DNA from: a virus
Taxonomy: Duplodnaviria; Heunggongvirae; Uroviricota; Caudoviricetes
Virus record (IMG/VR): IMGVR_UViG_2531839667_000012
Reading direction: 5' to 3' (one strand)
DNA: 32,021 nt
Numbering within the stretch: position 1 is the first letter of the stretch; every line of letters begins with the position of its first letter. Below are positions 1-25,928 of the stretch, piece by piece. The notes below the pieces were generated by a model. That model did not search any database and had not been told where the DNA came from. It was given only the letters and a program-made list of their open reading frames with translations. A program made the position numbers and the translations under genes.

Positions 1-1200
1 ATGCTGACCGATACCAAGCTGAAAAACCTCAAAGCGCGGGAAAAACTTTATAAAGTTGCAGACCGTGATGGGCTGTATGTAACCGTATCTCCCAAGGGAT
101 TGGTGACGTTTCGCTATGACTATCGAATCAATGGTCGTCGTGAAACGTTAACGATTGGTCGCTATGGTGACGGTATTTCTCTGGCGCAGGCGCGCGAAAA
201 ATTAGTGGAAGCTAAAAAACGCGTAAATGCAGGAATATCGCCCGCTGGAGAGAAGCGTGACGGTAAAACAAAGCGAAAAGAAGAAAAGACACTCCACGAT
301 TTTACCGTCAGCTACATGAAACACACCCGGCTGGCGGACAGCACAAGGGCGATGAAGCAAAGCATTATCGACAGAGACATCACCCCAGTATGGGGGCGCA
401 AGCTGCTGTCAGAGATAACCCCCTCTCTTCTACGTGAGTATTGCGACAAGATAAAAGCGCGTGGTGCGCCAGCGACAGCGATTCAGGTTCGCAATATCGT
501 TAGCGCGGTGTTTAAGTTCGCCGCGCTTCACGGCAACTATTACCCCAATCCTGCCGAAGAGGTTTTACCGGCTTCAATTGCGACATTCGAAGCGCGCGAC
601 AGAGCGCTCAAACCAGAAGAGATAGGCTGGTTTTTCAATCAGCTTGAACAAACGGGTACATTACCCACCATCAAGCTGGCCATTAAATTGGTTTTATTAA
701 CGATGGTGCGTAAAAGCGAACTGCTGAACGCGCCGTGGGGCGAGGTTAATTTTAATGCCTGCCTTTGGACGATTGACGCTAGCCGTATGAAGGGATCACG
801 GGATCATAATGTTTACCTGTCCCGGCAGGCGCAGGACATTCTGATTGCTCTAAAAATGTGCGCAGGAAGCAGTGATTGGGTTTTACCTTCATGCAATCAG
901 TCATCGCATAAGACCATGTCGGCGGCGACCTTAAACCGGGTCATTAATCTTACGGTTAAGCAGGCGCAGGAACGGGGGATCAGGCTGGCGTCGTTTTCCG
1001 TTCACGATATGCGCCGAACAGCATCGACGTTATTACATGAGGCTGGGTTTAATTCCGACTGGATAGAAAAATGCCTCGCGCACGAGGAAAGAAGCGTCAG
1101 AGCCGTTTATAACAAAGCGGAATACGCAGAACAGCGCCGCGACATGTTGCAGCAATGGGCGGATATGATTGATGGATGGATCAAGCAATACCGCCCGTGA
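1..1200 (+). CDS. int: Tyrosine site-specific integrase, P4/CP4-57 type (N-terminal arm-binding domain, HxxR box, C-terminal catalytic Tyr region)
   Basis: 399 aa ORF; N-terminus LTDTKLKNLK...GLYVTVSPKG typical of P4-family integrases; HDMRRTAST and AVYNKAEY motifs near the C-terminus. ATG is at window position 1, so the true start could lie upstream. Confidence 0.9.
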   Translation: MLTDTKLKNLKAREKLYKVADRDGLYVTVSPKGLVTFRYDYRINGRRETLTIGRYGDGISLAQAREKLVEAKKRVNAGISPAGEKRDGKTKRKEEKTLHDFTVSYMKHTRLADSTRAMKQSIIDRDITPVWGRKLLSEITPSLLREYCDKIKARGAPATAIQVRNIVSAVFKFAALHGNYYPNPAEEVLPASIATFEARDRALKPEEIGWFFNQLEQTGTLPTIKLAIKLVLLTMVRKSELLNAPWGEVNFNACLWTIDASRMKGSRDHNVYLSRQAQDILIALKMCAGSSDWVLPSCNQSSHKTMSAATLNRVINLTVKQAQERGIRLASFSVHDMRRTASTLLHEAGFNSDWIEKCLAHEERSVRAVYNKAEYAEQRRDMLQQWADMIDGWIKQYRP

Positions 1201-1203
1201 GTG

Positions 1204-1470
1204 TTATGCCGGGATTTTGGTGCCAGAGCGCTTTGGGGCTTTGGCCAGATTCTTCTGTACCGCGTTATCAGTAGGGTGATAATTATTTTCCTGCCGTGCC
1301 TTGAGCCAGCGTTCCACTTCCTCTTTGTCCCACGCGACGGCGCGCTTTGTCAGCGCAAAACGCTTGGGAAACAGGCCTTTTTGTTCCAACGCATAAATCG
1401 TACTTTCAGAGAGTGGCACCATCTGTAAAAGCACGTTTTTTCTAATGGCAATTTTCATTGTTTTCCCCAT
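1204..1470 (-). CDS. alpA: AlpA/Vis-family small DNA-binding protein (excisionase-like regulator)
   Basis: 88 aa ORF with LSESTIYALEQKGLFPKRFALTKRAVAWDKEEVERWL, matching the AlpA/Vis pattern; convergent with int, stops 3 bp apart. Start may instead be the ATG at 1458 (GGGGA upstream). Confidence 0.8.
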   Translation of the reverse strand: MGKTMKIAIRKNVLLQMVPLSESTIYALEQKGLFPKRFALTKRAVAWDKEEVERWLKARQENNYHPTDNAVQKNLAKAPKRSGTKIPA

Positions 1471-1819
1471 GCCGTTCGGCGTTCAGGTGTTGCCACTGCG
1501 CTGCAATCCGCTTCATCACCGCATTCCCCTCCGGGATCACCTCCTGCGGCTCTTTCATCAACATTACCCGCCCCCGGATAACGATCAGAGCCTGTTCCAG
1601 CAGGTCATAGTCCAGATAACAGAGGTCGGGAATATCCAGTTGCCACACGTAGCCATTCCATGCTGAAAGCAGCACTTGCGCGGCGGCGCGTCCACCGCTG
1701 GTTTCTGTGAGCGCAACGTCGACAAGGGCATTGACAGCAAGGCGGTATTCCTCCGGTGTTACGCAAAGTCTTTGCCGTTGGGTTTCTTGTGTTGCCAGAG
1801 CCTTAAATATTTCGTTCAT
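1442..1819 (-). CDS. Hypothetical protein, downstream of primase in the same operon
   Basis: 125 aa ORF, backbone-like composition, tightly packed between primase stop (1829) and alpA; no motif recognised. Confidence 0.5.
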   Translation of the reverse strand: MNEIFKALATQETQRQRLCVTPEEYRLAVNALVDVALTETSGGRAAAQVLLSAWNGYVWQLDIPDLCYLDYDLLEQALIVIRGRVMLMKEPQEVIPEGNAVMKRIAAQWQHLNAERHGENNENCH

Positions 1820-1828
1820 AACATTTCC

Positions 1829-4483
1829 TTATCGTTGAAAAACCCAGCACTTCACCGTCGCCGGGCGGCGCGATGCGGCTGGGTAACGGCGGTTAAATTC
1901 GGCGTTAATGCCGCTGTTAACCGTTCTGACTTCAATAAACTTGTGGGTACGGCTGGTTTTTAGCACTCGCTTCAAATCGCTGACCGGCGGGATCTGCTGG
2001 CGGCGTTCGGTAGCCAGTTGAATAAAGTGGTTAAGGTTGACGGCGATAAGCTGTTCATCGCGCGAGTGGTTAAGCTGCGGTTCGTCGTCGCCATCGAGGA
2101 AGTCGAAAATATCCCAGAACTCCTGCACCAGAGGATGATCGGCGCTGATGGCCTGCTGGCGCTCCAGACTGAGGCGGATAAACATTTCTCTGGTTGCCTG
2201 TAGCTGCTCCTTCGTGACCGGAATAACCAGCGCCAGCGCGTCGAGCAGCGCCATAAGCTGGGCGTGGTTTTTAATGATGCGGATATGGCGAATATCGGGG
2301 TGGGCGTGAAGCTGCTGCTCGTATAGCGGGATCTGCCGGTTGACGCACTCCAGCACGGCCTGTTCCGCCAGCGCTGCCTTCAGCATAAAGCCGGAAAGCT
2401 GTTCCACCGGCAGGCGTTCGAGCTGCTCGGCAGCGACCTTGGTCTGAGTATTCTGGCCGCTGCGGTCGGTGTACAGGTGAATAATACGTTCCAGCACCGG
2501 GTTAGAGGCGCTGACGTCGGCGTTTTGCGCAATCACAATCGCGCCCCGGAACGGAGGTTCATAGGTCTCGTTACCGCTGTTACGCAGACCGCGAGACCGC
2601 ACTGACCGCCCGTTGTAGGCGGTTTTTAGCTCTTCCCAATCAAAGCCGCGTTGCTTTGCACCCTCCTGATTACGGTCACCCTCGATCAGCACCACCGGCA
2701 TGTTCGCCACCTGCGCAAAGTTGCGCGCGCGGGCGGCCAGCGTTGATTTAGACGGATCGAAACCTTCATAGTCGCGTCGGCCTAACAGCTTCCAGAGAAA
2801 CTCTATCAGCGTGGTTTTGCCGCTGCCGGGTTCGCCAACGATTTCCAGAAACGGAAAGCTCTTGTGCTTGTCGCGGATCTGTTCGGCAAACATCGTCCCA
2901 AACCAGAACGCCAGCGCCACAAAGCCCTTTGCGCCAAACGCCTGCCAGAGTAGCTGGGGCCACTGGCTGTCCATCTGTTTTAAATTGTTGTTCAGCGTCA
3001 GGCTGACCGACTGGTTCAGGCTTTTAAGGCTGAGTTTGCCCATGTCGAAGAAGTCTTCTTCGTTGAGTGTGTACAGCCGACCATCGCGAACGGCCAGATC
3101 GTTGAACACGTAAGCGCGGTATTCTTTGCTGTAGCCGATAAAATCAGTGGTCTGGACAGTTTTGATTTTGGGAAGCTGCTTGAGCAGCAACTTATCTAAC
3201 TGCTGACTGGTGCCGGTGAAGATGCCGCCCTGCGCGATATGCAGCAGGCGCTTTTTGAATTCTGAGCCGCTGGAAAGTTGGGAGCCGGTGAAGGTGTTTT
3301 TTATCGGCGGCGTGTCGTCCGGGAAGTTAATGCGAAAGTAATACCAGCTTTCGTCGGTAATGGTGTTGGCCTGATAGTAGAGGGCGGTCGGGTAGCAGTT
3401 GGCGATCTCCACCACGGCGGACGACTCTTTCAGCGCCTTCTGTTTCAGCTCTTCTTCGCTCAGGTCGTCATTGGAGAATGAGATGCTTTCATGCACCCGC
3501 ATATAGCGGTCAATATCCAGCTTGAACCAGAACAGGCGGCTGTCAAACTCGAAGTGGAACTCTTTACGCTCTGTCTGTTCGTGCATCAGCAGGGCTTTGG
3601 CGGCGGGAGAGGTGGCGATCAGCAGAGAGCCGTAGTAGCGGTATTTCTTCACCAGCTCCGGGTTAAGCCGGTCGCGCTGGTGCAAATCGTTCCAGTCCAG
3701 CTTGCTGCGGGAATGCGGCGTCTGTGCGGCGGCTGCGCTCCAGCCTTCGTCCCGGCTGCGCTTTACCCATCGCCGGGTATAGCTCATGCCCGCCTTGTCG
3801 TTATCCAGCGCCCAGACCAGTAAAGGGCGCTTTTTATCCACGAACAGCGCGGCCAGTTGACTTAACGCCTGCGCCGGATAGTTGTTGCAGGTCATCAGGG
3901 AAACGGCGGCGATGCCGTGGTGATGCAAGGCGATAGCGTCAAAAATGCCTTCAACCAGCCAGATCTCCTGTTGTTCCTCCAGTTTCAGCGTTGGCAATTG
4001 CCACCATAGCCCGCTGTAAGCGCCGTGAAAGTTGGCTTTGCGATCGCCGAAACGTTGTGGACGGTCAACGATCCGCTCCCACCACACGCCGTCAGCCAGC
4101 GGGAAACGTACCGTCGCTGAACCGATATCACGCCGTGGGTCGTAGTAGTTCTCTTGAGTGTAACAGTCACGGATCAGCGAAAGGTCAAAGCCGCGCATCT
4201 CGCGCAGGTAGGCATCGGCGGCGGCCTGTGGGTTTTCCGGGGTTGGGGGATATCTGTCTGACCAGCTTTCAAACAGATCCGGGTACATATCTTTGATGTG
4301 GATTTCGGCATTGCATTTATTCAGGCGACCGCAGCGCAATACCCACGGGCTGATGGCATTGGTGTACAGCTCTTTTTTCTGGCAGTCCGGGCAGATGCCC
4401 TGCCGCAGCCAGTCGCCCTGTTCTTTAAAGGAAAAGTCGGCCAGCAGTCGCCGCGTAATTTCCTGATGAAGTTGTGGTTGCAT
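1829..4483 (-). CDS. Primase-helicase (N-terminal zinc finger, DnaG-like toprim motifs, C-terminal P-loop NTPase), P4 alpha-like in function
   Basis: 884 aa ORF; CPDC...C cysteine cluster near N-terminus; LVEGIFDAIAL and WALDNDKAG toprim-like motifs; Walker A GEPGSGKTT; AAAGG SD about 8 nt upstream of the ATG at 4483. Confidence 0.85.
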   Translation of the reverse strand: MQPQLHQEITRRLLADFSFKEQGDWLRQGICPDCQKKELYTNAISPWVLRCGRLNKCNAEIHIKDMYPDLFESWSDRYPPTPENPQAAADAYLREMRGFDLSLIRDCYTQENYYDPRRDIGSATVRFPLADGVWWERIVDRPQRFGDRKANFHGAYSGLWWQLPTLKLEEQQEIWLVEGIFDAIALHHHGIAAVSLMTCNNYPAQALSQLAALFVDKKRPLLVWALDNDKAGMSYTRRWVKRSRDEGWSAAAAQTPHSRSKLDWNDLHQRDRLNPELVKKYRYYGSLLIATSPAAKALLMHEQTERKEFHFEFDSRLFWFKLDIDRYMRVHESISFSNDDLSEEELKQKALKESSAVVEIANCYPTALYYQANTITDESWYYFRINFPDDTPPIKNTFTGSQLSSGSEFKKRLLHIAQGGIFTGTSQQLDKLLLKQLPKIKTVQTTDFIGYSKEYRAYVFNDLAVRDGRLYTLNEEDFFDMGKLSLKSLNQSVSLTLNNNLKQMDSQWPQLLWQAFGAKGFVALAFWFGTMFAEQIRDKHKSFPFLEIVGEPGSGKTTLIEFLWKLLGRRDYEGFDPSKSTLAARARNFAQVANMPVVLIEGDRNQEGAKQRGFDWEELKTAYNGRSVRSRGLRNSGNETYEPPFRGAIVIAQNADVSASNPVLERIIHLYTDRSGQNTQTKVAAEQLERLPVEQLSGFMLKAALAEQAVLECVNRQIPLYEQQLHAHPDIRHIRIIKNHAQLMALLDALALVIPVTKEQLQATREMFIRLSLERQQAISADHPLVQEFWDIFDFLDGDDEPQLNHSRDEQLIAVNLNHFIQLATERRQQIPPVSDLKRVLKTSRTHKFIEVRTVNSGINAEFNRRYPAASRRPATVKCWVFQR

Positions 4484-4571
4484 TGCCAGTACCTTTATTC
4501 AGGTAATACTTACCCGTCGCATAGACACGTTGTTTATGCGTTGTGGTTGTGAGTCTTTTATTTACTGAGCG

Positions 4572-4802
4572 TTACGCGATTTTCTGTTTTTGCAGAAATT
4601 GCCCGCGTGTGGATAGTGGTATGTGTATCTTAGGATTCGGGCAACCGCTCGGTACCACCGTTCCCATCACGGTTTCCATTGCGATAAATGAAAACGAACA
4701 GTTAACGTTTTTGCACTGGTAATAGAGCTTACGTACCAGCGGTGACATATATTCGCTGCTGCGAATTATCGCCTTACCGTCGCAGTGTGGGCATTTCATC
4801 AT
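4572..4802 (-). CDS. ogr: Ogr/Delta-family zinc-finger late transcription activator
   Basis: CPHCDGKA...YYQCKNVNCSFSF matches the Ogr C-x2-C...C-x4-C pattern; ORF track begins at a GTG (4820), but an ATG at 4802 with AAGGAG upstream is the more likely start. Confidence 0.85.
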   Translation of the reverse strand: MMKCPHCDGKAIIRSSEYMSPLVRKLYYQCKNVNCSFSFIAMETVMGTVVPSGCPNPKIHIPLSTRGQFLQKQKIA

Positions 4803-4838
4803 GTCCGATCTCCTTACCACTTTTAACTAACTGAAACA

Positions 4839-5045
4839 CTAACGCTTTTCGTTAACGGACTGACGAAATAGTGTGATGCCGTTCAAAAAAATGATTCTTG
4901 CCATGCTGGACATCGAACGGTTCTGATCCAGCGCTAATGCTTCCAGTTCCGCGATTTCAGCGGGGAGCAGGCGCATTGCCACCGGTTTGTTCGACATCAC
5001 CCCGCGAGGTGCTCGTGAGCGTAAGACGTTCTCATTTGTTTTCAT
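4839..5045 (-). CDS. Small ribbon-helix-helix (CopG/Arc-like) regulator, first gene of the leftward operon (Cox/Apl-position analogue)
   Basis: 68 aa ORF; KPVAMRLLPAEIAELEALALDQNRSMSSMARIIF fits an RHH beta-strand plus two helices; divergent from the XRE gene; start may be the internal ATG at 4997. Confidence 0.55.
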   Translation of the reverse strand: MKTNENVLRSRAPRGVMSNKPVAMRLLPAEIAELEALALDQNRSMSSMARIIFLNGITLFRQSVNEKR

Positions 5046-5054
5046 GGTGGTATA

Positions 5055-5077
5055 TTGTGGTTATTAACATTACACAA
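5055..5077. promoter_or_regulatory. Inverted repeat TTGTG-N13-CACAA in the 55-bp divergent intergenic region; candidate operator of the switch
   Basis: Sequence ttgtggttattaacattacacaa lies between the divergent RHH (minus) and XRE (plus) genes. Confidence 0.35.
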
Positions 5078-5100
5078 AGCGTATAGGAAAAATATTCCCT

Positions 5101-5466
5101 ATGTCAACCGAGAAACAGGAAATATTTTACATTATTGGGGCTAGGTTGCGAGAAGAACGTGAGCGACTTGAGAAGAGCCAGAAATTTATGGCTGAGGCAC
5201 TTGGGGCGGATATCAAAACATGGAACAACTATGAGCGGGGGGCATCGGTGCCTGATGCTCATAAATTAACCATTATAGCGGCAGTGGGTGTAGACGTTCT
5301 GTATGTTCTGACTGGCAACCGCACGCCTGTAGTTACGTTGTCCAGTAAAGAGAGTGTGTTGGTCGAAAATTACCGTTCTGCTACGCCAGAACACCAGTCC
5401 ACCCTTGACACGGTTAGCGCTGCGCTTGCGCAACCGGGTGTAGGGAAGAAAGCTGGAGGGGCGTAA
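5101..5466 (+). CDS. XRE-family helix-turn-helix regulator (candidate immunity repressor / operon regulator)
   Basis: 121 aa; N-terminal IGARLREERERLEKSQKFMAEALGADIKTWNNYERG is an HTH_XRE/Cro-C1 pattern; AGGAAA upstream; stops 5 bp before the next gene. Confidence 0.8.
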   Translation: MSTEKQEIFYIIGARLREERERLEKSQKFMAEALGADIKTWNNYERGASVPDAHKLTIIAAVGVDVLYVLTGNRTPVVTLSSKESVLVENYRSATPEHQSTLDTVSAALAQPGVGKKAGGA

Positions 5467-5470
5467 TTTT

Positions 5471-5905
5471 ATGTTTAATACAGTATCTCTTATTATTGTT
5501 GTGATTTTGCTATGTGCTGTCGTTTCAGCTCTTATTACTCAGAAGAGAGAAAAGAAAAAAGGGAGCGTAGATAAAGTTAGTGATGAAATTTTACGTATCA
5601 GGTCTCTTGGGAAAAAACAACCGCTTTATTATTCTAACGCAACCACAAGATATGAAGAAATACCGCCGTCTGTTCAAAAAAATAGAAAAATTAATATACT
5701 GAAAATAGGAAAAGTAAAATATATCGCTTTCAGTTACATAGATAGTAAAGGTGATTTTACTCACCGTGAGGTGGATGTTTCATCTATAGATAATGAATAT
5801 TTACAAGGGTATTGCCACTTAGCTAAAGAGTATAGAACATTTCGCCTTGATAGGATTCAGGGGGATGTTATTTGTAGAGATACAGGGGAAGTTATTTTAA
5901 ATTAA
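5471..5905 (+). CDS. Membrane-anchored WYL-domain protein (N-terminal TM helix, C-terminal WYL-like ligand-binding domain)
   Basis: 144 aa; hydrophobic N-terminus VSLIIVVILLCAVVSALI followed by KREKKK; C-terminal YIAFSYIDSKGDFTHREVDVSSIDNEYLQGYCHLAKEYRTFRLDRIQ resembles the WYL signature; strongly AT-rich. Confidence 0.6.
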   Translation: MFNTVSLIIVVILLCAVVSALITQKREKKKGSVDKVSDEILRIRSLGKKQPLYYSNATTRYEEIPPSVQKNRKINILKIGKVKYIAFSYIDSKGDFTHREVDVSSIDNEYLQGYCHLAKEYRTFRLDRIQGDVICRDTGEVILN

Positions 5906-5929
5906 CGATAAATATTAAGTGAGGATGTT

Positions 5930-6331
5930 TTGAATACATATAATTTATTTATTAGTCATTCATGGAAATATAATGATACATATGAATCATTGGTACGTCT
6001 TTTAAAAGGAAGAGGATATTTTGATTTTAAAAATTACTCAGTACCAAGAATAGATCCTATCATTGGTGCTAATAGCCATTCAGCTTTATATTCAGCAATT
6101 CAAAATCAGATGCGACCGTCTCAGGTAGTTTTGATTTTAGCCGGTGTATATGCATCATATAGTACTTGGATTGATGCAGAAATAAGGATAGCCAAGGATT
6201 GGAAAAAGCCAATTATCGCTATTGAACCTTGGGGATCTGAGAGGACATCCAAGGTAGTAAAAGATGCAGCGAACAGAATTGTAAAATGGAACTCAGATAG
6301 TATTGTTAAAGCAATTAGAGAGTTGGCATAA
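5930..6331 (+). CDS. Minimal TIR-like domain protein (predicted NAD+-processing signal generator)
   Basis: 133 aa; begins LFISHSWKY (TIR betaA-like) and contains YASYSTWIDAEI, resembling the TIR SxWxxxE catalytic-glutamate motif; TTG start with GAGGA upstream; AT-rich. Confidence 0.6.
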   Translation: MNTYNLFISHSWKYNDTYESLVRLLKGRGYFDFKNYSVPRIDPIIGANSHSALYSAIQNQMRPSQVVLILAGVYASYSTWIDAEIRIAKDWKKPIIAIEPWGSERTSKVVKDAANRIVKWNSDSIVKAIRELA

Positions 6332-6341
6332 GGATTAACTG

Positions 6342-7307
6342 ATGAGAAAGGCTCTGTTTGTTGGGATTAATGAATATGCGGAAATTTCTCATCTTGCGGG
6401 ATGTGAAAATGATGCTATGAAGATGTCTGCGGCATTGTCCAGACATGCGGATGGGCGTCCTAATTTTGAAGGGAAAGATTTGATTCACCGTGAGCAGATG
6501 CCTGTAACTAAGGTATTGCTTGAGCAAGAAATTCAGACTTTATTCAGTGGTTCAGCAGATATAGCTTTATTATTCTTTGCTGGGCATGGGTATTTTGATG
6601 AAAATATAGATGAAGGGGTTATCATTCCTCATGATTACTCTTCTCATCAAAGCAATGGTGTGAGAATCAGTGATATCATGCTATGGGCATCGAGAGCAAC
6701 CAATATTAAAAATAAAATAATAATACTAGATTGCTGTCAGGCGGGCGCTGCCGGACAAGTCAGGAACTTAAGAGGTGGAGACTCCATTCTTGCTGATGGC
6801 ACAACAATATTAACCGCATGTCAGCGTGATGAATATGCGCAAGAGCAGGATGGTCAGGGTATTTTTACAGCCTTAATGTTGGAGGCTTTATATGGCGCAG
6901 GTGCTAATATATTGGGGCATGTAACACCCGGTAGTTTGTATAGCTTTGTTGACCAAGCATTAGGTGCATGGGAGCAGCGACCGGTATTTAAAACAAATGT
7001 ATCCAGATTCGTAGTGCTAAGAGAAGTCGGGCCAAGAATCCCGTTAGAAACATTAAGGCAATTACCTGATTGGTTTGCTAGTGGTAGTGCTGAATATCCT
7101 CTTGATCCTAGTTACGAGCCTGATTCAGGAGCACCAAATGAGGATAATGTAAGGATATTTCGGCAATTACAAGCCTGTAATCGTCATGGCCTTGTTGAAC
7201 CTGTTAACGCAGAACATATGTATTATGCAGCGATGAATTCAACTGCATGTAGATTGACCGCTTTGGGAGCCTATTATAGAAAACTGGCAGAGAAAAGGCG
7301 TTTTTGA
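6342..7307 (+). CDS. Caspase-like protease (peptidase C14 / metacaspase-like His-Cys dyad) with C-terminal domain of unknown function
   Basis: 321 aa; KALFVGINEY start, FFAGHGYF (His-Gly) and IILDCCQAGAAG (catalytic Cys) in caspase order and spacing; AAGGA SD 7 nt upstream; AT-rich. Confidence 0.8.
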   Translation: MRKALFVGINEYAEISHLAGCENDAMKMSAALSRHADGRPNFEGKDLIHREQMPVTKVLLEQEIQTLFSGSADIALLFFAGHGYFDENIDEGVIIPHDYSSHQSNGVRISDIMLWASRATNIKNKIIILDCCQAGAAGQVRNLRGGDSILADGTTILTACQRDEYAQEQDGQGIFTALMLEALYGAGANILGHVTPGSLYSFVDQALGAWEQRPVFKTNVSRFVVLREVGPRIPLETLRQLPDWFASGSAEYPLDPSYEPDSGAPNEDNVRIFRQLQACNRHGLVEPVNAEHMYYAAMNSTACRLTALGAYYRKLAEKRRF

Positions 7308-7332
7308 TTAATCGGGTGTACGGGGGTTGGTT

Positions 7333-8436
7333 TCAATCCAGCCCTAGCTCACACTCCACCGCCGTCCCATACCCACTGCTGTTATCCAACGTATGCACGC
7401 ACCGCGTAATCACCCACGCGGTGCCGTCAATCTCCGCCTTAAACCCCTTCACCTGCACCGACAGTTCCGGGAACAAATCGGGCCGTCCGCGCGCAAGATT
7501 CAGGCTGAACGTTGCCGCGCCGCGCTGTAGCTGCTCCCACGCGCTTTTTGCCGCTCTGTAGGCGTTATTTTTGTTGGCATAGGTGTGGCGCAGCACCTTG
7601 ATATTTCCCTCTTCGCCAACCATCACGTTATCAGCATTGAATGAGGCGTCTGACGGCGGTGATTCTGTTGGTTGCGTTTGTGGACGGTTTTTCCGTGTCT
7701 TGCGCTTCATGTCAGTGGACTGCTTTTTTGCCTGCCGTGTATCCAGCCAGTAGGCCGTCACACCGGTATACGCCTCCCTGTCCGCGATGCTGAACCGGTG
7801 GCTGTCGCCGTCCTCGCGGGTAATGGTTGCGACCGGCAGCGGTTTGCCGCTGGCACTTTTACCGGAACCTGTCGGCATTAGCAGCAGAGCATCATTTTTC
7901 ACGCAGGCGATAGCGCCGTGCAGTTGCGCCAGCCGGGTCAGGAAGGAGGCATCGGATTCGTTAGTCTGGTCAACGTGCTCAATGGCGATCCCAGCCAGCT
8001 CGCCGCTGACGGTTGATTCCAGCTTATGACGCGCCGCCACGGTTTGCACAATCGCGCCCAGCGTCACATCATGGTAGCTCTGTTCCCGTTTAACGTTCAG
8101 CGAATCGCGGAAATCGGCGCTGCGGGCGCGGAGGCTGAGTACGTCCGGTGCGCCGCTGTGCTCCAGTTCGTCCACTGTGAAGACATTCTGGTGCATCACG
8201 CCGTCACCCTTCCAGCCCAGAGAAACCGTTAGCTTTTCGCCCTTTGCCGGAAACGCCAGCAGGCCGTCGCTGTCGTCCAGTTCGAGCTGCAGTTCGTCGG
8301 CCTCAAAGCCCCGGTTGTCGGTGATACGCAGGCTGATTAAGCGGTTGTCCAGATTCCGCGTAATGTCCTTACCGTTCAGCACCACGCTGTACTCCGGCTG
8401 CGGCTGGGCGTTTAAGAGTGCGTTTAACATCGTCAT
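7333..8436 (-). CDS. D: P2 gpD-like tail protein (late control gene D)
   Basis: 367 aa, sequence and position (after U, before ogr) match P2 gene D. Confidence 0.85.
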   Translation of the reverse strand: MTMLNALLNAQPQPEYSVVLNGKDITRNLDNRLISLRITDNRGFEADELQLELDDSDGLLAFPAKGEKLTVSLGWKGDGVMHQNVFTVDELEHSGAPDVLSLRARSADFRDSLNVKREQSYHDVTLGAIVQTVAARHKLESTVSGELAGIAIEHVDQTNESDASFLTRLAQLHGAIACVKNDALLLMPTGSGKSASGKPLPVATITREDGDSHRFSIADREAYTGVTAYWLDTRQAKKQSTDMKRKTRKNRPQTQPTESPPSDASFNADNVMVGEEGNIKVLRHTYANKNNAYRAAKSAWEQLQRGAATFSLNLARGRPDLFPELSVQVKGFKAEIDGTAWVITRCVHTLDNSSGYGTAVECELGLD

Positions 8437-13962: not shown

Positions 13963-14721
13963 TTAATTCAGGATAATCAATTCTGATGTGGCGCTGGCTG
14001 GCTTTCCACCTACGGTATAGCGAATCCCTACCGTTGAGAATGTCAGGCCGTGGAAGATATCGCGCATTTCCGGGATGTCGTTAACCGAGATAATCATCCG
14101 GCCCTGCATGGTGCGCGCCAGCTCTGCCATACGCTGGTACTGCTCAAGGCCAAATGGTACGCCGTAGCCTTCGGTTTTCCAGTATGGAGGGTCGCAGTAG
14201 AACAGGGTATGCGGGCGGTCATAGCGGCGAATACAGTCGGCCCAGTCCAGATTTTCAATGCAGACGCGCGCCAGCCGCAGATGGGCGGCGGATAAATCCT
14301 CTTCCATACGCAGCAGGTTCAGGCGCGGCGGTGAGGTGGTAGCGGTACCGAACGTGCGGCTTTCCACTTTGCCGCCGAATGCCAGCTTTTGCAGATAGTA
14401 GAAGCGCGCCGCGCGCTGGATATCGGTCAGCGTTTCTTCCGGGGTGATCTGGAGCCAGCGGTACATTTCGCGGCTGACCAGCGACCATTTAAACTGGCGG
14501 ACAAACTCTTCTAAATGGTGCTGAAGTACGCGGTAGAGGTTGGTAACGTCACCGTTGATATCATTCAGCACCTCGGCCTGTGCGGGCTGTTTCATAAAGA
14601 ACAACGCCGCCGCCCCGCAGAACGGTTCAACGTAGCAGCGGTGTTTGGGAAACAGTGGCAGAATGTGTTTTGCCAGCCTGCGCTTACCGCCGATCCACGG
14701 AATAACGGGTAACGTATTCAT
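13963..14721 (-). CDS. dam: DNA adenine N6-methyltransferase, Dam/D12 class
   Basis: 252 aa; motif I EPFCGAAALFF and motif IV FYCDPPYW; located between tail-fibre assembly gene G and FI. Confidence 0.85.
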   Translation of the reverse strand: MNTLPVIPWIGGKRRLAKHILPLFPKHRCYVEPFCGAAALFFMKQPAQAEVLNDINGDVTNLYRVLQHHLEEFVRQFKWSLVSREMYRWLQITPEETLTDIQRAARFYYLQKLAFGGKVESRTFGTATTSPPRLNLLRMEEDLSAAHLRLARVCIENLDWADCIRRYDRPHTLFYCDPPYWKTEGYGVPFGLEQYQRMAELARTMQGRMIISVNDIPEMRDIFHGLTFSTVGIRYTVGGKPASATSELIILN

Positions 14722-20327: not shown

Positions 20328-20663
20328 TTAACCGTGCGCAGCCTTCATCAGTGTATCGTTAATCCACTGGTTAACGCTTTTACCGGAGACTTCTGCCGCA
20401 ACGTTAATGGCAGAGTGAATTTCAGGTGGAATACGCAGGCTGATTTTTCCGCTGGCCGGACGCAACGGCTCCCGGCCCCGTTCCTCGCAGTAAGCCAGAT
20501 AGTCGTCTACCGCCTCTTCAAACGCTTTACGCAGATCGGCAACATTATCGGCATGAAAGCCAATGACATCCCGAATGCCTGCAACGTGACCAACAATGCA
20601 TTGATCTTCATCGCTGTATTCAATTTTTGCGGCATAGCCTCTATATGTCATGGTATTCATCAT
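20328..20663 (-). CDS. hicB: HicB-family antitoxin (RNase H-like fold N-domain plus C-terminal RHH DNA-binding domain)
   Basis: 111 aa; YRGYAAKIEYSDEDQCIVGHVAGIRDVIGFHADNVADLRKAFEEAVDDYL and C-terminal KISLRIPPEIHSAINVAA RHH-like segment; overlaps hicA by 4 nt. Confidence 0.85.
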   Translation of the reverse strand: MMNTMTYRGYAAKIEYSDEDQCIVGHVAGIRDVIGFHADNVADLRKAFEEAVDDYLAYCEERGREPLRPASGKISLRIPPEIHSAINVAAEVSGKSVNQWINDTLMKAAHG

Positions 20664-20923
20664 GGTGTTACCCCTACAGCTTCAAGGAATGTTCTGGCAT
20701 CGCGAACCTGATAGGCTTTCGCTTCTTTTTCCGGGTGTGGACGATGAAATGAAGCCACAACCTGATTAATTTCAAACCTGACGCGGGAACCGTTTCCTTC
20801 CGTAGCAATAGCCCCCAAAGCAATAAATAAGGCTTCTATTTTTCGCCATTCCAGCGTGACAGGTGTTGGCGTAGAAAAAACAGCTTGTAAGGTTTTTTTA
20901 TGTTTGGCGCTTAACGTATTCAT
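20660..20923 (-). CDS. hicA: HicA-family mRNA interferase toxin
   Basis: 87 aa; GNGSRVRFEINQVVASFHRPHP resembles E. coli HicA ANGSNHLKLRFHGRRSVMPRHP. Confidence 0.8.
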   Translation of the reverse strand: MNTLSAKHKKTLQAVFSTPTPVTLEWRKIEALFIALGAIATEGNGSRVRFEINQVVASFHRPHPEKEAKAYQVRDARTFLEAVGVTP

Positions 20924-20972
20924 ACAGGGTATTTTCCATAAGTTATTTTATTCTTCCGCCAAGATATAATGA

Positions 20973-20996
20973 TGATATCATTTTTTGATATCATTT
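20973..20996. promoter_or_regulatory. Two copies of palindrome TGATATCA(T) upstream of hicA; candidate HicB operator / hicAB promoter
   Basis: atgatatcat at 20973-20982 and tgatatcat at 20988-20996 in an AT-rich stretch between the S start and hicA start. Confidence 0.5.
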
Positions 20997-21442
20997 CAAG
21001 TCAGGAAGTGAACGATTAGCGCCTCTATCTTTCGCACATCCTCCGCCGAAACCCCCAGCAACTGCCTTTGTGCGTAATCCACCTCCAACCCGTAGCGATT
21101 TACCCGATCGCGCAGGCCATACTGATGAACGGCGGCCATATGTCGAACGCTGCTGAGAAACGAAATGGTTGCTCCCTGCCCATCTCCTTTTCCTTTCATA
21201 TAGCGTGCGGTACGCAGCTTACGGAACATCTGGCGGCGGATCTTTCCTTTTTTACTGCGTAGCTGGGGCTTACGGGGGGCGAACGATGAGCCGTCCGGGT
21301 TTTTCTGCGCGGCTATCCGCTGGCTTTGTGACTGGCGCAGGCTGCGGGCGATTTCCCGCGCCAGTTGGGTTCGGCTTGCCGGGGAGAGCTTTACGAGCAG
21401 GCCATCGGCCCAGCGGTGGAGTTGTTGCAGGTCTTCGCTCAT
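20996..21442 (-). CDS. S: Tail completion protein (P2 gpS-like)
   Basis: 148 aa; position after R; basic central region. Confidence 0.85.
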   Translation of the reverse strand: MSEDLQQLHRWADGLLVKLSPASRTQLAREIARSLRQSQSQRIAAQKNPDGSSFAPRKPQLRSKKGKIRRQMFRKLRTARYMKGKGDGQGATISFLSSVRHMAAVHQYGLRDRVNRYGLEVDYAQRQLLGVSAEDVRKIEALIVHFLT

Positions 21443-24535: not shown

Positions 24536-24635
24536 AGCATTAGCCTCTTTAATGTTGTGGTCAGAGGCCCGTTGGTGTTGGTAGCACCTGCGGGCTTCGT
24601 TCGTTTAAGGGTTGCAAAACATCACGTAATTGCGA

Positions 24636-24676
24636 TGTAATTACAACTACATCATTCTAAGGATTTTGTAATTACA
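24636..24676. promoter_or_regulatory. Two copies of the perfect 10-bp palindrome TGTAATTACA (24636-24645 and 24667-24676); candidate operators in a divergent promoter region
   Basis: Second copy ends immediately before the ATG of the Arc-like gene; an additional half-site-like GTAATTG at 24626-24632. Confidence 0.55.
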
Positions 24677-24847
24677 ATGTCAAGTGAAAAGGCTAAAACA
24701 GATCAGTACCAACTTCGTCTTGCTCATGAATTTAGAAAGCAGCTTGAAGAACAGGCTCGTAAAGATGGAGATACCTCTCTCGCAACATGGATAAAACGCG
24801 TTTTGCGTAAGGAACTTCAGTCACGAGGTATTGAACCCAAAGGATAA
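24677..24847 (+). CDS. Arc/MetJ-type ribbon-helix-helix repressor (56 aa; below the ORF-track size cutoff)
   Basis: Hand translation MSSEKAKTDQYQLRLAHEFRKQLEEQARKDGDTSLATWIKRVLRKELQSRGIEPKG; QYQLRLAHEF...SLATWIKRVL resembles Arc beta-strand and helices. Confidence 0.6.
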   Translation: MSSEKAKTDQYQLRLAHEFRKQLEEQARKDGDTSLATWIKRVLRKELQSRGIEPKG

Positions 24848-24948
24848 TTACGGAGATATCAAGCAGCGCTAAGAAGTTAGGATTATTTGTTCAGCCCAGA
24901 TTAGTCGATATGCACTGATTAACTTAAACATTGTGTGTAGGAGGTGTT

Positions 24949-25602
24949 GTGGATATTGAATTTTTTCTTAAAGAGCGCACAAGATTCGTTACTTATTTCT
25001 ATGAAACGGCTGCTGCACCATTTGTTAACATCATGAATGATATTGAGAATGAAGTGGAACCTTATATTCAGCCGTATGGTGAGAGTGATGAACCAGCTTT
25101 TTTAGATGAATGGTTAGATGCAAAGTCGGGATTAGAAACCTGTGGGCACCATGCATTATCGATGCTTTCGTCTTCTCTTCAGTTGTACCTGAAGGCGTGG
25201 GTAGATCGCTTAGGATATCATAGCGTGAAATCTGATATAAATTTCAAGAAGGGTTGGTTTAATGGCTATCGTGAAATTTTCAACAAAATTGAGTTGGAAA
25301 TGGCAAAATGTCCTGCAAATTTGGAAATAATTGAACAAATTCCCTTGGTGAGAAATCGTGTCCAGCATCCTGAGGAACTTACCTCAATTAATATTTCTCA
25401 CTCAAAAAATGACTTGGAAAAATATCCTCGCCCATACTTTATTCAGGAGTGTGAGCTACTTTTGGCTTCCGAACAGGAAGAAAAATCGTGGTTATTCCCA
25501 CCTACAATATCCCCGACTAAAGAGAAAATATTCGAAGCTATCAGAAATGTTGAAATGCTGTGCTCTTGGTTAGAGTCTGAGTATTGGTCGGCTCTTGACT
25601 AA
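24949..25602 (+). CDS. Hypothetical protein, AT-rich cargo gene under the Arc-like regulator
   Basis: ORF in the track starts at TTG 24931; GTG 24949 follows a GGAGG SD (short spacing). About 217-223 aa; no motif recognised. Confidence 0.5.
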   Translation: MDIEFFLKERTRFVTYFYETAAAPFVNIMNDIENEVEPYIQPYGESDEPAFLDEWLDAKSGLETCGHHALSMLSSSLQLYLKAWVDRLGYHSVKSDINFKKGWFNGYREIFNKIELEMAKCPANLEIIEQIPLVRNRVQHPEELTSINISHSKNDLEKYPRPYFIQECELLLASEQEEKSWLFPPTISPTKEKIFEAIRNVEMLCSWLESEYWSALD

Positions 25603-25637
25603 ATGTAGAATAGAGTAAGTCAGCGTCAAATGAAAAC

Positions 25638-25655
25638 AGCCCGACGAATCGGGCT
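25638..25655. terminator. Hairpin between convergent genes (candidate bidirectional terminator)
   Basis: AGCCCGA-cgaa-TCGGGCT stem-loop; T-run follows on the minus strand (GTTTTCA), weaker on the plus strand. Confidence 0.5.
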
Positions 25656-25691
25656 ATTATGGCTATCAGGCAAACACTACCTTCAAACTCA

Positions 25692-25928
25692 TTATGCCGC
25701 CTCAATACCCGCTCTGGTTAACATATAGTGGCCCCAGTGGGTTTTCTTCAGATAACCGGCCAGTTCCATCTGTGTCACAATAAATTCAGCGTTAACTATT
25801 TCTATATCTGCGTAGTCGGCCAGATCGCGCAGCGGCCATGTGCTGCGAACTCCGACGCTAACTATGGTATCTCTGATGCGGCGAGCGGTATCGGTCATTG
25901 GGCGGGTTCTGGCTGCCTGAATAGTCAT
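25692..25928 (-). CDS. Hypothetical small protein downstream of L
   Basis: Start chosen at ATG 25928 (MTIQAART...) with GGGGA upstream; ORF track begins at a GTG (25967). Confidence 0.4.
   Translation of the reverse strand: MTIQAARTRPMTDTARRIRDTIVSVGVRSTWPLRDLADYADIEIVNAEFIVTQMELAGYLKKTHWGHYMLTRAGIEAA

Follow-up and report, generated by a model that had tools for sequence, protein, structure and literature searches.

Type IV Thoeris, published in 2024-2025 with systems from E. coli 328 and Pseudomonas sp. 1-7, is defined by a short TIR protein encoded beside a caspase-like protein (Rousset et al., bioRxiv 10.1101/2024.10.24.620036). Upon infection the TIR protein makes N7-cyclic ADP-ribose (N7-cADPR), which activates a promiscuous arginine-specific protease that cleaves many proteins, EF-Tu among them; the two genes are sufficient for defence, and the substitutions E79Q in the TIR protein or C129A in the caspase abolish it (bioRxiv 10.1101/2024.10.24.620036). 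The C-terminal domain of the caspase is the proposed N7-cADPR sensor, and a DefenseFinder model exists for the TIR-caspase family. The pair is also part of Liu-DS6, a composite operon in which a clade F Pycsar system and a fifth gene accompany type IV Thoeris (NAR 2026, PMC13069673). Here we describe a locus related to these systems on a stretch of 32,021 nucleotides (nt) from a virus of the Caudoviricetes (IMG/VR record IMGVR_UViG_2531839667_000012; hereafter the window, to which all positions refer). A complete P2-like prophage fills the whole window, from the start of the integrase gene to the portal gene.

The locus probably represents the lysogenic operon of a P2-like prophage of the Toprim-primase lineage, made up of three modules, namely an XRE-family repressor gene, an independent gene for a transmembrane (TM) protein with a WYL domain (TM-WYL protein) and a type IV Thoeris pair. 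Four plus-strand genes between ogr and gene D, as read from the sequence in the original prediction, are present, and the domains it named (XRE, TM plus WYL, TIR and caspase-like) were recovered in Pfam and PADLOC profile searches. The genes and the part of them that is shared with a Salmonella locus are:

5101-5466, plus strand: XRE-family helix-turn-helix (HTH) protein, 121 amino acids (aa); HTH_31, 1.6e-7 (Pfam)
5471-5905, plus strand: TM-WYL protein, 144 aa; WYL PF13280, 1.1e-7 (Pfam)
5930-6331, plus strand: ThsB-type TIR protein, 133 aa; ThsB_TIR PF08937, 2.4e-16 (Pfam)
6342-7307, plus strand: caspase-like protease, 321 aa; Peptidase_C14 PF00656, 1.1e-14 (Pfam)
5927-7308, plus strand: mobile type IV Thoeris module, delimited by the stretch that aligns with the Salmonella locus (blastn, 78% identity)

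The G+C contents of the XRE, WYL, TIR and caspase genes are 0.50, 0.324, 0.333 and 0.418, respectively, and that of the prophage backbone is 0.565 (standard deviation 0.034, minimum 0.403, 400-nt windows). The last three genes are thus compositional outliers far below the backbone, in agreement with their earlier description as AT-rich, horizontally acquired cargo. Repeats within the cargo are short two-copy chance matches.

The TIR-caspase pair

Assignment of the TIR and caspase-like genes to type IV Thoeris is strongly supported by sequence comparison. The published MacSyFinder rule combines a caspase-profile match with a ThsB or TIR_2 match within one gene (bioRxiv 10.1101/2024.10.24.620036), and the window pair conforms to it with PF08937 at 2.4e-16, PF00656 at 1.1e-14 and a gap of 10 nt. 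PADLOC matches were obtained for both proteins (ThsB 4.9e-12, caspase 5.8e-18). The TIR gene starts with TTG, 5 nt after a GAGGA Shine-Dalgarno sequence, and the catalytic glutamate of its product, E84 in the motif WIDAE, is invariant among homologues. EcTIR, the TIR protein of E. coli 328 whose cloned sequence is given by Rousset et al. (Table S2, bioRxiv 10.1101/2024.10.24.620036), aligns with the window TIR without gaps over 133 aa in both at 77% identity and 89% similarity, carries WIDAE at the same position and is the single link to a validated system. The window allele belongs to a sister lineage and is not the allele of EcTIR. EcTIR is equally far (77%) from the Pantoea-type TIR. In searches of PDB sequences, the TIR protein retrieved only MTH538 (1eiw), a small uncharacterised archaeal protein, and the caspase-like protein retrieved nothing.

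The caspase-like protein has a caspase core (residues 1 to ~215) with H82 (AGHG) and C131/C132 (DCC), all invariant in 35 homologues, and a C-terminal domain (~231-321) that is conserved across all homologues and is presumed to bind the signal. Its AlphaFold2 (AF2) model has a mean predicted local distance difference test (pLDDT) score of 70.5, is confident at residues 1-133 and 231-321 (C-terminal domain ~72-90), and matches MALT1, caspases 1/3/4/6/11 and metacaspases (Foldseek E 2e-8 to 1e-5). The first cysteine of DCC is at position 129 in the 319-aa homologues, which agrees with C129A of PsCaspase by position only. An identification as EACC1-associated caspase (NCBIfam NF047832) was rejected at 80.6 bits against a cut-off of 140. 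Essentially this caspase is included in PHROGs (phrog_18397, 3.8e-204), and 99 blocks of the sequence collection index an E. coli 'caspase family protein' with exactly its sequence; in the E. coli contigs that were read, the identical caspase always lies within this same prophage. A caspase of Edwardsiella anguillarum falls into the same 90%-identity cluster, which points to movement between genera, either of the cassette or of the entire prophage.

The pairing of a TIR signal generator with a caspase-like effector, put forward in the original prediction, corresponds to type IV Thoeris, given the 77% identity of the TIR protein to EcTIR, and the TIR plus caspase variant of Thoeris that it mentioned is this same type (bioRxiv 10.1101/2024.10.24.620036). 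Structure prediction, which it had proposed as a check, gave a caspase/MALT1 fold for the 321-aa protein and a WYL barrel for the 144-aa protein (AF2, Foldseek). The catalytic residues it singled out, the TIR glutamate in WIDAE and the caspase histidine and cysteine in AGHG and DCC, are the invariant E84, H82 and C131/C132. It had also seen no ThsA-type effector, and Pfam and PADLOC found no type I/II Thoeris effector (SIR2-SLOG ThsA or Macro-TM) in the four proteins or their neighbours.

Homologous pairs occur in other loci. Over its full length the caspase is 85% identical to that of Salmonella, 71% to that of Pantoea and 58-63% to 319-aa proteins of Pseudomonas, Vibrio and Actinobacillus, and all contexts inspected (Salmonella, Pantoea, Pseudomonas, Vibrio) have a ThsB_TIR gene directly upstream of the caspase gene. 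Only 5927-7308 aligns with the Salmonella locus in blastn, beginning 3 bases ahead of the start codon of the TIR gene and ending with the stop codon of the caspase gene, and the Salmonella pair has neither a WYL nor an XRE gene upstream. In Pantoea, genes of 183-194 and 262 aa precede the TIR-caspase pair and a 140-aa gene follows it, a pattern that agrees with the published Pycsar-Thoeris operon 'Liu-DS6'; that operon shows the pair as a cassette combined with other genes. The order in Pseudomonas and Vibrio (L014-L020) is ThsB_TIR, caspase, TIR_2, with two different TIR genes flanking the caspase gene; a link of the Pseudomonas operons with 319-aa caspases to Pseudomonas sp. 1-7 via TIR_2 was rejected, as the downstream TIR_2 and PsTIR of Pseudomonas sp. 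1-7 are unrelated. A WYL gene is absent from all other TIR-caspase loci examined (Salmonella, Pantoea, Pseudomonas, Vibrio). That the TIR-caspase pair is a modular, mobile cassette is strongly supported. The pair itself is known and biochemically characterised elsewhere, and its exact proteins are already in public databases; as a close relative of a dissected system, it offers nothing new mechanistically.

The XRE gene and the prophage around it

There is strong support for the XRE gene belonging to the prophage and not to Thoeris, and its position and mosaicism make it most likely that it encodes the prophage immunity repressor and is the promoter-proximal gene of the lysogenic operon. The protein has RstR/DicA-like matches (NCBIfam) and matches to PHROG families of transcriptional repressors. 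Its gene is divergent to the leftward early operon, which begins with an Arc-like gene and continues with ogr, a Toprim primase gene, a DUF7673 gene and an AlpA-like gene. The features that frame the four genes are:

4572-4820, minus strand: ogr, which flanks the cargo on one side
4839-5045, minus strand: Arc-like (ribbon-helix-helix) protein, 68 aa; phrog_3431 'Arc-like repressor', 4.2e-24, and a weak RHH_5 match
5064-5128: candidate genetic switch, an inverted repeat and promoter-like sites facing both ways
5448-7367: variable cargo slot, bounded by the 3' ends of the XRE gene and of gpD (blastn against the sister prophage L001)
7333-8436, minus strand: gpD, which flanks the cargo on the other side

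A sister prophage, present in four complete E. coli genomes, is ~97% identical to the window over 1-5077 and from 7368 onward, and in its full annotation the XRE protein is the sole repressor candidate. Sister prophages keep the XRE gene and carry unrelated cargo between it and gpD, encoding a DUF6037 protein, a nucleoid-associated protein and a hypothetical protein. Around the XRE gene only one segment has diverged from the sister, 5078-5274, which comprises the upstream sequence and the HTH half, and over the 3' half (5275-5447) identity is 93%. This divergence fits the immunity region of heteroimmune relatives. The variation expected of an immunity repressor, confined to operator/promoter and recognition domain, was found here between flanks of 93-97% identity.

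A candidate switch (5064-5128) overlaps the diverged segment. An inverted repeat with 17-nt arms (5089-5105 and 5112-5128, 82% complementary) has at its centre a consensus TTGACA on the minus strand (5108-5103), followed after a 16-nt spacer by TATACG, and it is plausible that these hexamers form the early promoter, which a bound dimer could occlude. A candidate XRE promoter faces the other way, with TTAACA (5064) and AAAAAT (5088-5093) on the plus strand 18 nt apart; AAAAAT ends 7 nt ahead of the XRE ATG (5101). The sister prophage has a different palindrome adjoining its own TTGACA. The 68-aa Arc-like protein is likely the Cox/Apl-type counterpart of the repressor. With the candidate -10 element so near the ATG, the repressor mRNA is perhaps leaderless or nearly so. 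Leaderless mRNAs occur for some phage repressors. Such a reading conflicts with AGGAAAAA, a possible Shine-Dalgarno sequence of the XRE gene.

Elsewhere in the prophage, a Toprim primase of 884 aa (phrog_1139, 1829-4483) replaces the P2 gpA-type replication gene, and the left end (1-1819) carries int, the AlpA-like gene and the DUF7673 gene. In the Toprim-primase lineage ogr is inside the early operon, whereas in P2 it adjoins gpD. A search of the INPHARED phage collection gave no near match to 4500-7700, and no Rfam family was found anywhere in the window. A second AT-rich island (24550-25700, G+C content 0.39-0.40) has two plus-strand open reading frames (ORFs), 24677-24847 (56 aa) and 24931-25602 (223 aa), neither of which matches Pfam or PADLOC; since at this position the sister prophage has a toxin-antitoxin pair of the phd/doc type, the island is a second variable cargo hotspot. 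The G+C content also drops to 0.42 at 20501-21000, within a late-gene region otherwise at 0.56-0.59. Between the tail-sheath and tail-fibre genes lies a 252-aa ORF (13963-14721, minus strand), and an ORF of the same length at the equivalent position in the sister is annotated as DNA adenine methylase; the product could be an orphan methylase shielding the phage from restriction.

The TM-WYL protein and its family

The TM-WYL protein represents an independent, position-conserved and repressor-linked family of prophage genes, a conclusion that is strongly supported by the contexts of its relatives. The protein consists of a TM helix (~5-23), a basic QKREKKK stretch, a disordered linker (46-82) and a WYL beta-barrel (84-135), and by the positive-inside rule the QKREKKK stretch after the TM helix predicts a cytoplasmic WYL domain. 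In the AF2 model a helix (4-45) and disorder (46-82) precede a five-stranded barrel (84-135, pLDDT >90) that resembles, in Foldseek, the WYL domains of PafBC, BrxR and DriD as well as Hfq-like barrels. PADLOC gave domain-level WYL matches only, and in a word-index search the protein matched nothing but itself.

An exhaustive HMMER search of 1.84 billion representatives retrieved 538 relatives at E<=1e-3. Most are 140-240 aa long and carry at the N-terminus one to three hydrophobic segments, which a low-complexity linker joins to a WYL barrel at the C-terminus; 130 of the 150 best have at least one predicted TM segment. The family signature is FxYxDSxGxxTxRxVDV...YLxGYCH...RTFRLDRI...TGE, in which R99, R122 and R128 are invariant or near-invariant. 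The WYL domains of CapW, DriD and PafBC bind single-stranded DNA via conserved arginines flanking the WYL strand, and because such arginines are kept in the TM-WYL family, a nucleic-acid or nucleotide ligand is plausible.

Among the relatives, we found the gene order CI repressor (Phage_CI_repr plus Phage_CI_C), TM-WYL, integrase in eight IMG/VR prophage loci, CI followed by TM-WYL in further loci (Rahnella 186-like prophages, L039), and an OB-fold/zinc-ribbon gene, TM-WYL and integrase in two. Architectures like that of the window occur in Toprim-primase P2-like prophages of Stutzerimonas, P. aeruginosa and two other sources; all four have early genes including ogr, a small divergent gene in the repressor position (with an HTH/XRE match in Stutzerimonas and L046), TM-WYL, cargo and gpD, and the cargo behind TM-WYL differs in each prophage. 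Taken together, the slot behind the repressor in the Toprim lineage holds TM-WYL first and a variable cassette second, and in the window this cassette is the type IV Thoeris pair. No TIR or caspase gene was found in any of these TM-WYL prophage loci, which represent at least 12 independent P2/186-like prophages. TM-WYL genes are consistently below their own prophages in G+C content, and their distribution is patchy.

The literature searched contains no description of the TM-WYL family and no experimental precedent for its architecture. The WYL domain of the window protein also matches a PHROG annotated 'DNA ligase' (phrog_2561). In addition, a 165-aa non-membrane WYL protein, whose C-terminal half appears BRCT-like by eye, recurs behind zinc-ribbon genes in viral contigs (L042-L044, IMG/VR), and the gene directly ahead of TM-WYL in a prophage of P. 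aeruginosa (L025:4246-4884) encodes a separate 212-aa protein with a weak BRCT match. The BRCT-like features and the phrog_2561 match are a hint at a link of phage WYL domains to DNA-end or damage biology.

Organisation of the operon and comparison with described systems

The four genes are probably co-transcribed from the XRE promoter, because the gaps between the XRE, WYL, TIR and caspase genes are 4, 24 and 10 nt and no convincing terminator lies between genes. We infer by homology to the validated E. coli 328 and Pseudomonas systems that the chemistry of this pair consists of N7-cADPR signalling, arginine-specific proteolysis and abortive infection. In the lysogen, the XRE protein would bind the inverted repeat over the -35 element of the early promoter and repress the early operon, and all four genes would be read from one XRE-side promoter. 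Upon infection, the TIR protein (E84) would turn NAD+ into N7-cADPR, which would bind the caspase-like protein, probably at its C-terminal domain, and the activated arginine-specific protease (H82/C131) would degrade cellular proteins such as EF-Tu and abort the infection. As the cassette sits behind the repressor, the system would be expressed in lysogens and shield the host from competing phages.

The original prediction spoke of a four-gene cargo operon, which holds for the probable co-transcription but not for function, where we distinguish three modules and place neither the XRE nor the TM-WYL gene in the same system as the pair. It is very unlikely that the four genes form one Thoeris-like system, with the TM-WYL protein as sensor, regulator or second membrane effector and the XRE protein as dedicated regulator, even though they are co-oriented and tightly packed, low G+C content is common to the WYL, TIR and caspase genes, and the E. 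coli contigs with the WYL and the caspase gene nearly coincide (43 versus 47). WYL domains are also ligand sensors that often accompany defence systems (CapW/BrxR; PADLOC WYL matches), and TM proteins are common as Thoeris effectors. However, the nearest pair, that of Salmonella with 85% caspase identity, lacks both genes, its DNA homology being limited to 5927-7308 and beginning at the ribosome-binding site of the TIR gene, and the sisters keep the XRE gene alongside unrelated cargo; both genes are therefore placed outside Thoeris. For TM-WYL this follows as well from its relatives, which sit behind repressors in prophages without TIR or caspase genes: in at least 12 such loci they are always beside a repressor and/or integrase gene, and no WYL gene accompanies the other TIR-caspase pairs examined. 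The two-gene system, moreover, defended alone (bioRxiv 10.1101/2024.10.24.620036). The idea of a CapW/BrxR-type regulator of the Thoeris genes was rejected for TM-WYL, which has no HTH and no WCX domain. An XRE protein acting on the cargo side, silencing toxic passengers until stress in a CapH/CapP-like manner while another gene provides immunity, would be in keeping with its small size (121 aa), with its having no recognisable oligomerisation or peptidase domain, and with the HTH regulators that often precede defence operons. We nevertheless think this unlikely: the annotated sister prophage offers no other repressor candidate, the swap of promoter region and HTH half between flanks of 97% identity is what heteroimmune phages show, the element under the inverted repeat is the -35 of the candidate early promoter and not a cargo promoter, and CI-family repressors occupy the equivalent position upstream of TM-WYL in related prophages.

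More room, if still less than even, is left for the TM-WYL protein being a stand-alone anti-phage or superinfection-exclusion protein, a second independent defence in the hotspot instead of a housekeeping factor of lysogeny. It would be expressed from the repressor operon, a classic location of exclusion genes, it joins a membrane anchor to a cytoplasmic nucleic-acid-binding fold, the arginines of its YL-x-GYC...RTFRLDRI signature are conserved, the WYL domains of CapW and DriD bind single-stranded DNA, and the genes of the family are richer in AT than the prophages that carry them and have a patchy distribution. On the other side, PADLOC matched no complete system model beyond the domain-level WYL hits, the literature searched holds no experimental precedent for the architecture, and the fixed place between cI and int fits lysogeny control equally well. 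Several observations also weigh against the three-module organisation that we favour. Promoter-like sites inside the WYL gene (5673-5720) could drive the TIR and caspase genes separately. The repressor role of the XRE protein is based on position and mosaicism, and next to the single inverted repeat neither a second operator nor an operator array was found. The sister E. coli prophages have no TM-WYL gene, and that of the window equals the TIR gene in AT-richness; it could for these reasons have come in with the Thoeris pair. The combination of a ligand-binding WYL domain and a membrane anchor in its product, too, resembles a second signal-activated effector.

Keeping to three modules, our best guess for the TM-WYL protein is that it is tethered to the inner membrane of the lysogen, binds single-stranded nucleic acid or nucleotides there and, independently of Thoeris, works for the prophage, for instance by excluding superinfecting phages or by sensing DNA that is incoming or damaged. 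More speculatively, the whole family might form a module that is widespread in the lysogeny operons of P2/186-like prophages; tethered to the membrane, its members would sense or bind single-stranded nucleic acid (or nucleotides) and either keep superinfecting phages out or gate the cargo behind them, with possible cross-talk to Thoeris. The family, with its strikingly conserved place beside the repressor gene, often between cI and int, is a candidate for carrying out a novel function in exclusion or sensing. The locus places an already known defence system in new genomic surroundings, a hotspot in the lysogenic operon, together with a passenger TM-WYL gene, and offers a clean case of a defence cassette inserted in the repressor-side operon of a P2-like prophage. 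This position explains the possible constitutive expression of an abortive-infection protease system in lysogens, and the interval from repressor to gpD emerges as a cargo hotspot of P2-like phages of the Toprim-primase lineage.

With the type IV Thoeris systems of Rousset et al. the window shares a short ThsB-type TIR protein encoded directly upstream of a ~320-aa caspase with a C-terminal domain, and the catalytic glutamate, histidine and cysteine. The E. coli 328 system is a two-gene operon, whereas the window pair belongs to another allele or lineage and lies behind a prophage repressor and TM-WYL. The Pseudomonas and Vibrio loci differ in having a second, TIR_2 gene, which the window does not carry, and the TIR protein of Pseudomonas sp. 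1-7 is of a different type, unrelated to that of the window. Liu-DS6 resembles the window in placing the TIR-caspase cassette in a composite operon, and the Pantoea homologues (71%) have its five-gene pattern; its upstream partners are a cyclase and a TM effector, in contrast to the phage repressor and TM-WYL protein here, and synergy or functional coupling between the Thoeris pair and its upstream partners is not implied.

The regulators CapW, BrxR, DriD and PafBC share with the TM-WYL protein the WYL barrel with YL...RxFRxDRI and are the proteins that it matches best in structure. They carry an N-terminal winged helix-turn-helix (wHTH) domain and a WCX domain, whereas the N-terminus of the TM-WYL protein is a hydrophobic TM helix without an HTH match and its chain ends 9 residues past the barrel; having neither wHTH nor WCX, it cannot act like a DNA-bound transcription factor of the CapW type. 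In position, the window cargo is comparable to cI-rexA-rexB of phage lambda, where passenger genes lie behind the repressor, and to glo of K139, an immunity/exclusion gene of a P2-family Vibrio phage. The window cargo, a signalling defence system and a WYL protein, has no sequence relationship to rex or glo, but like these it is placed behind a repressor, a position that would allow its expression in lysogens and its action against other phages.

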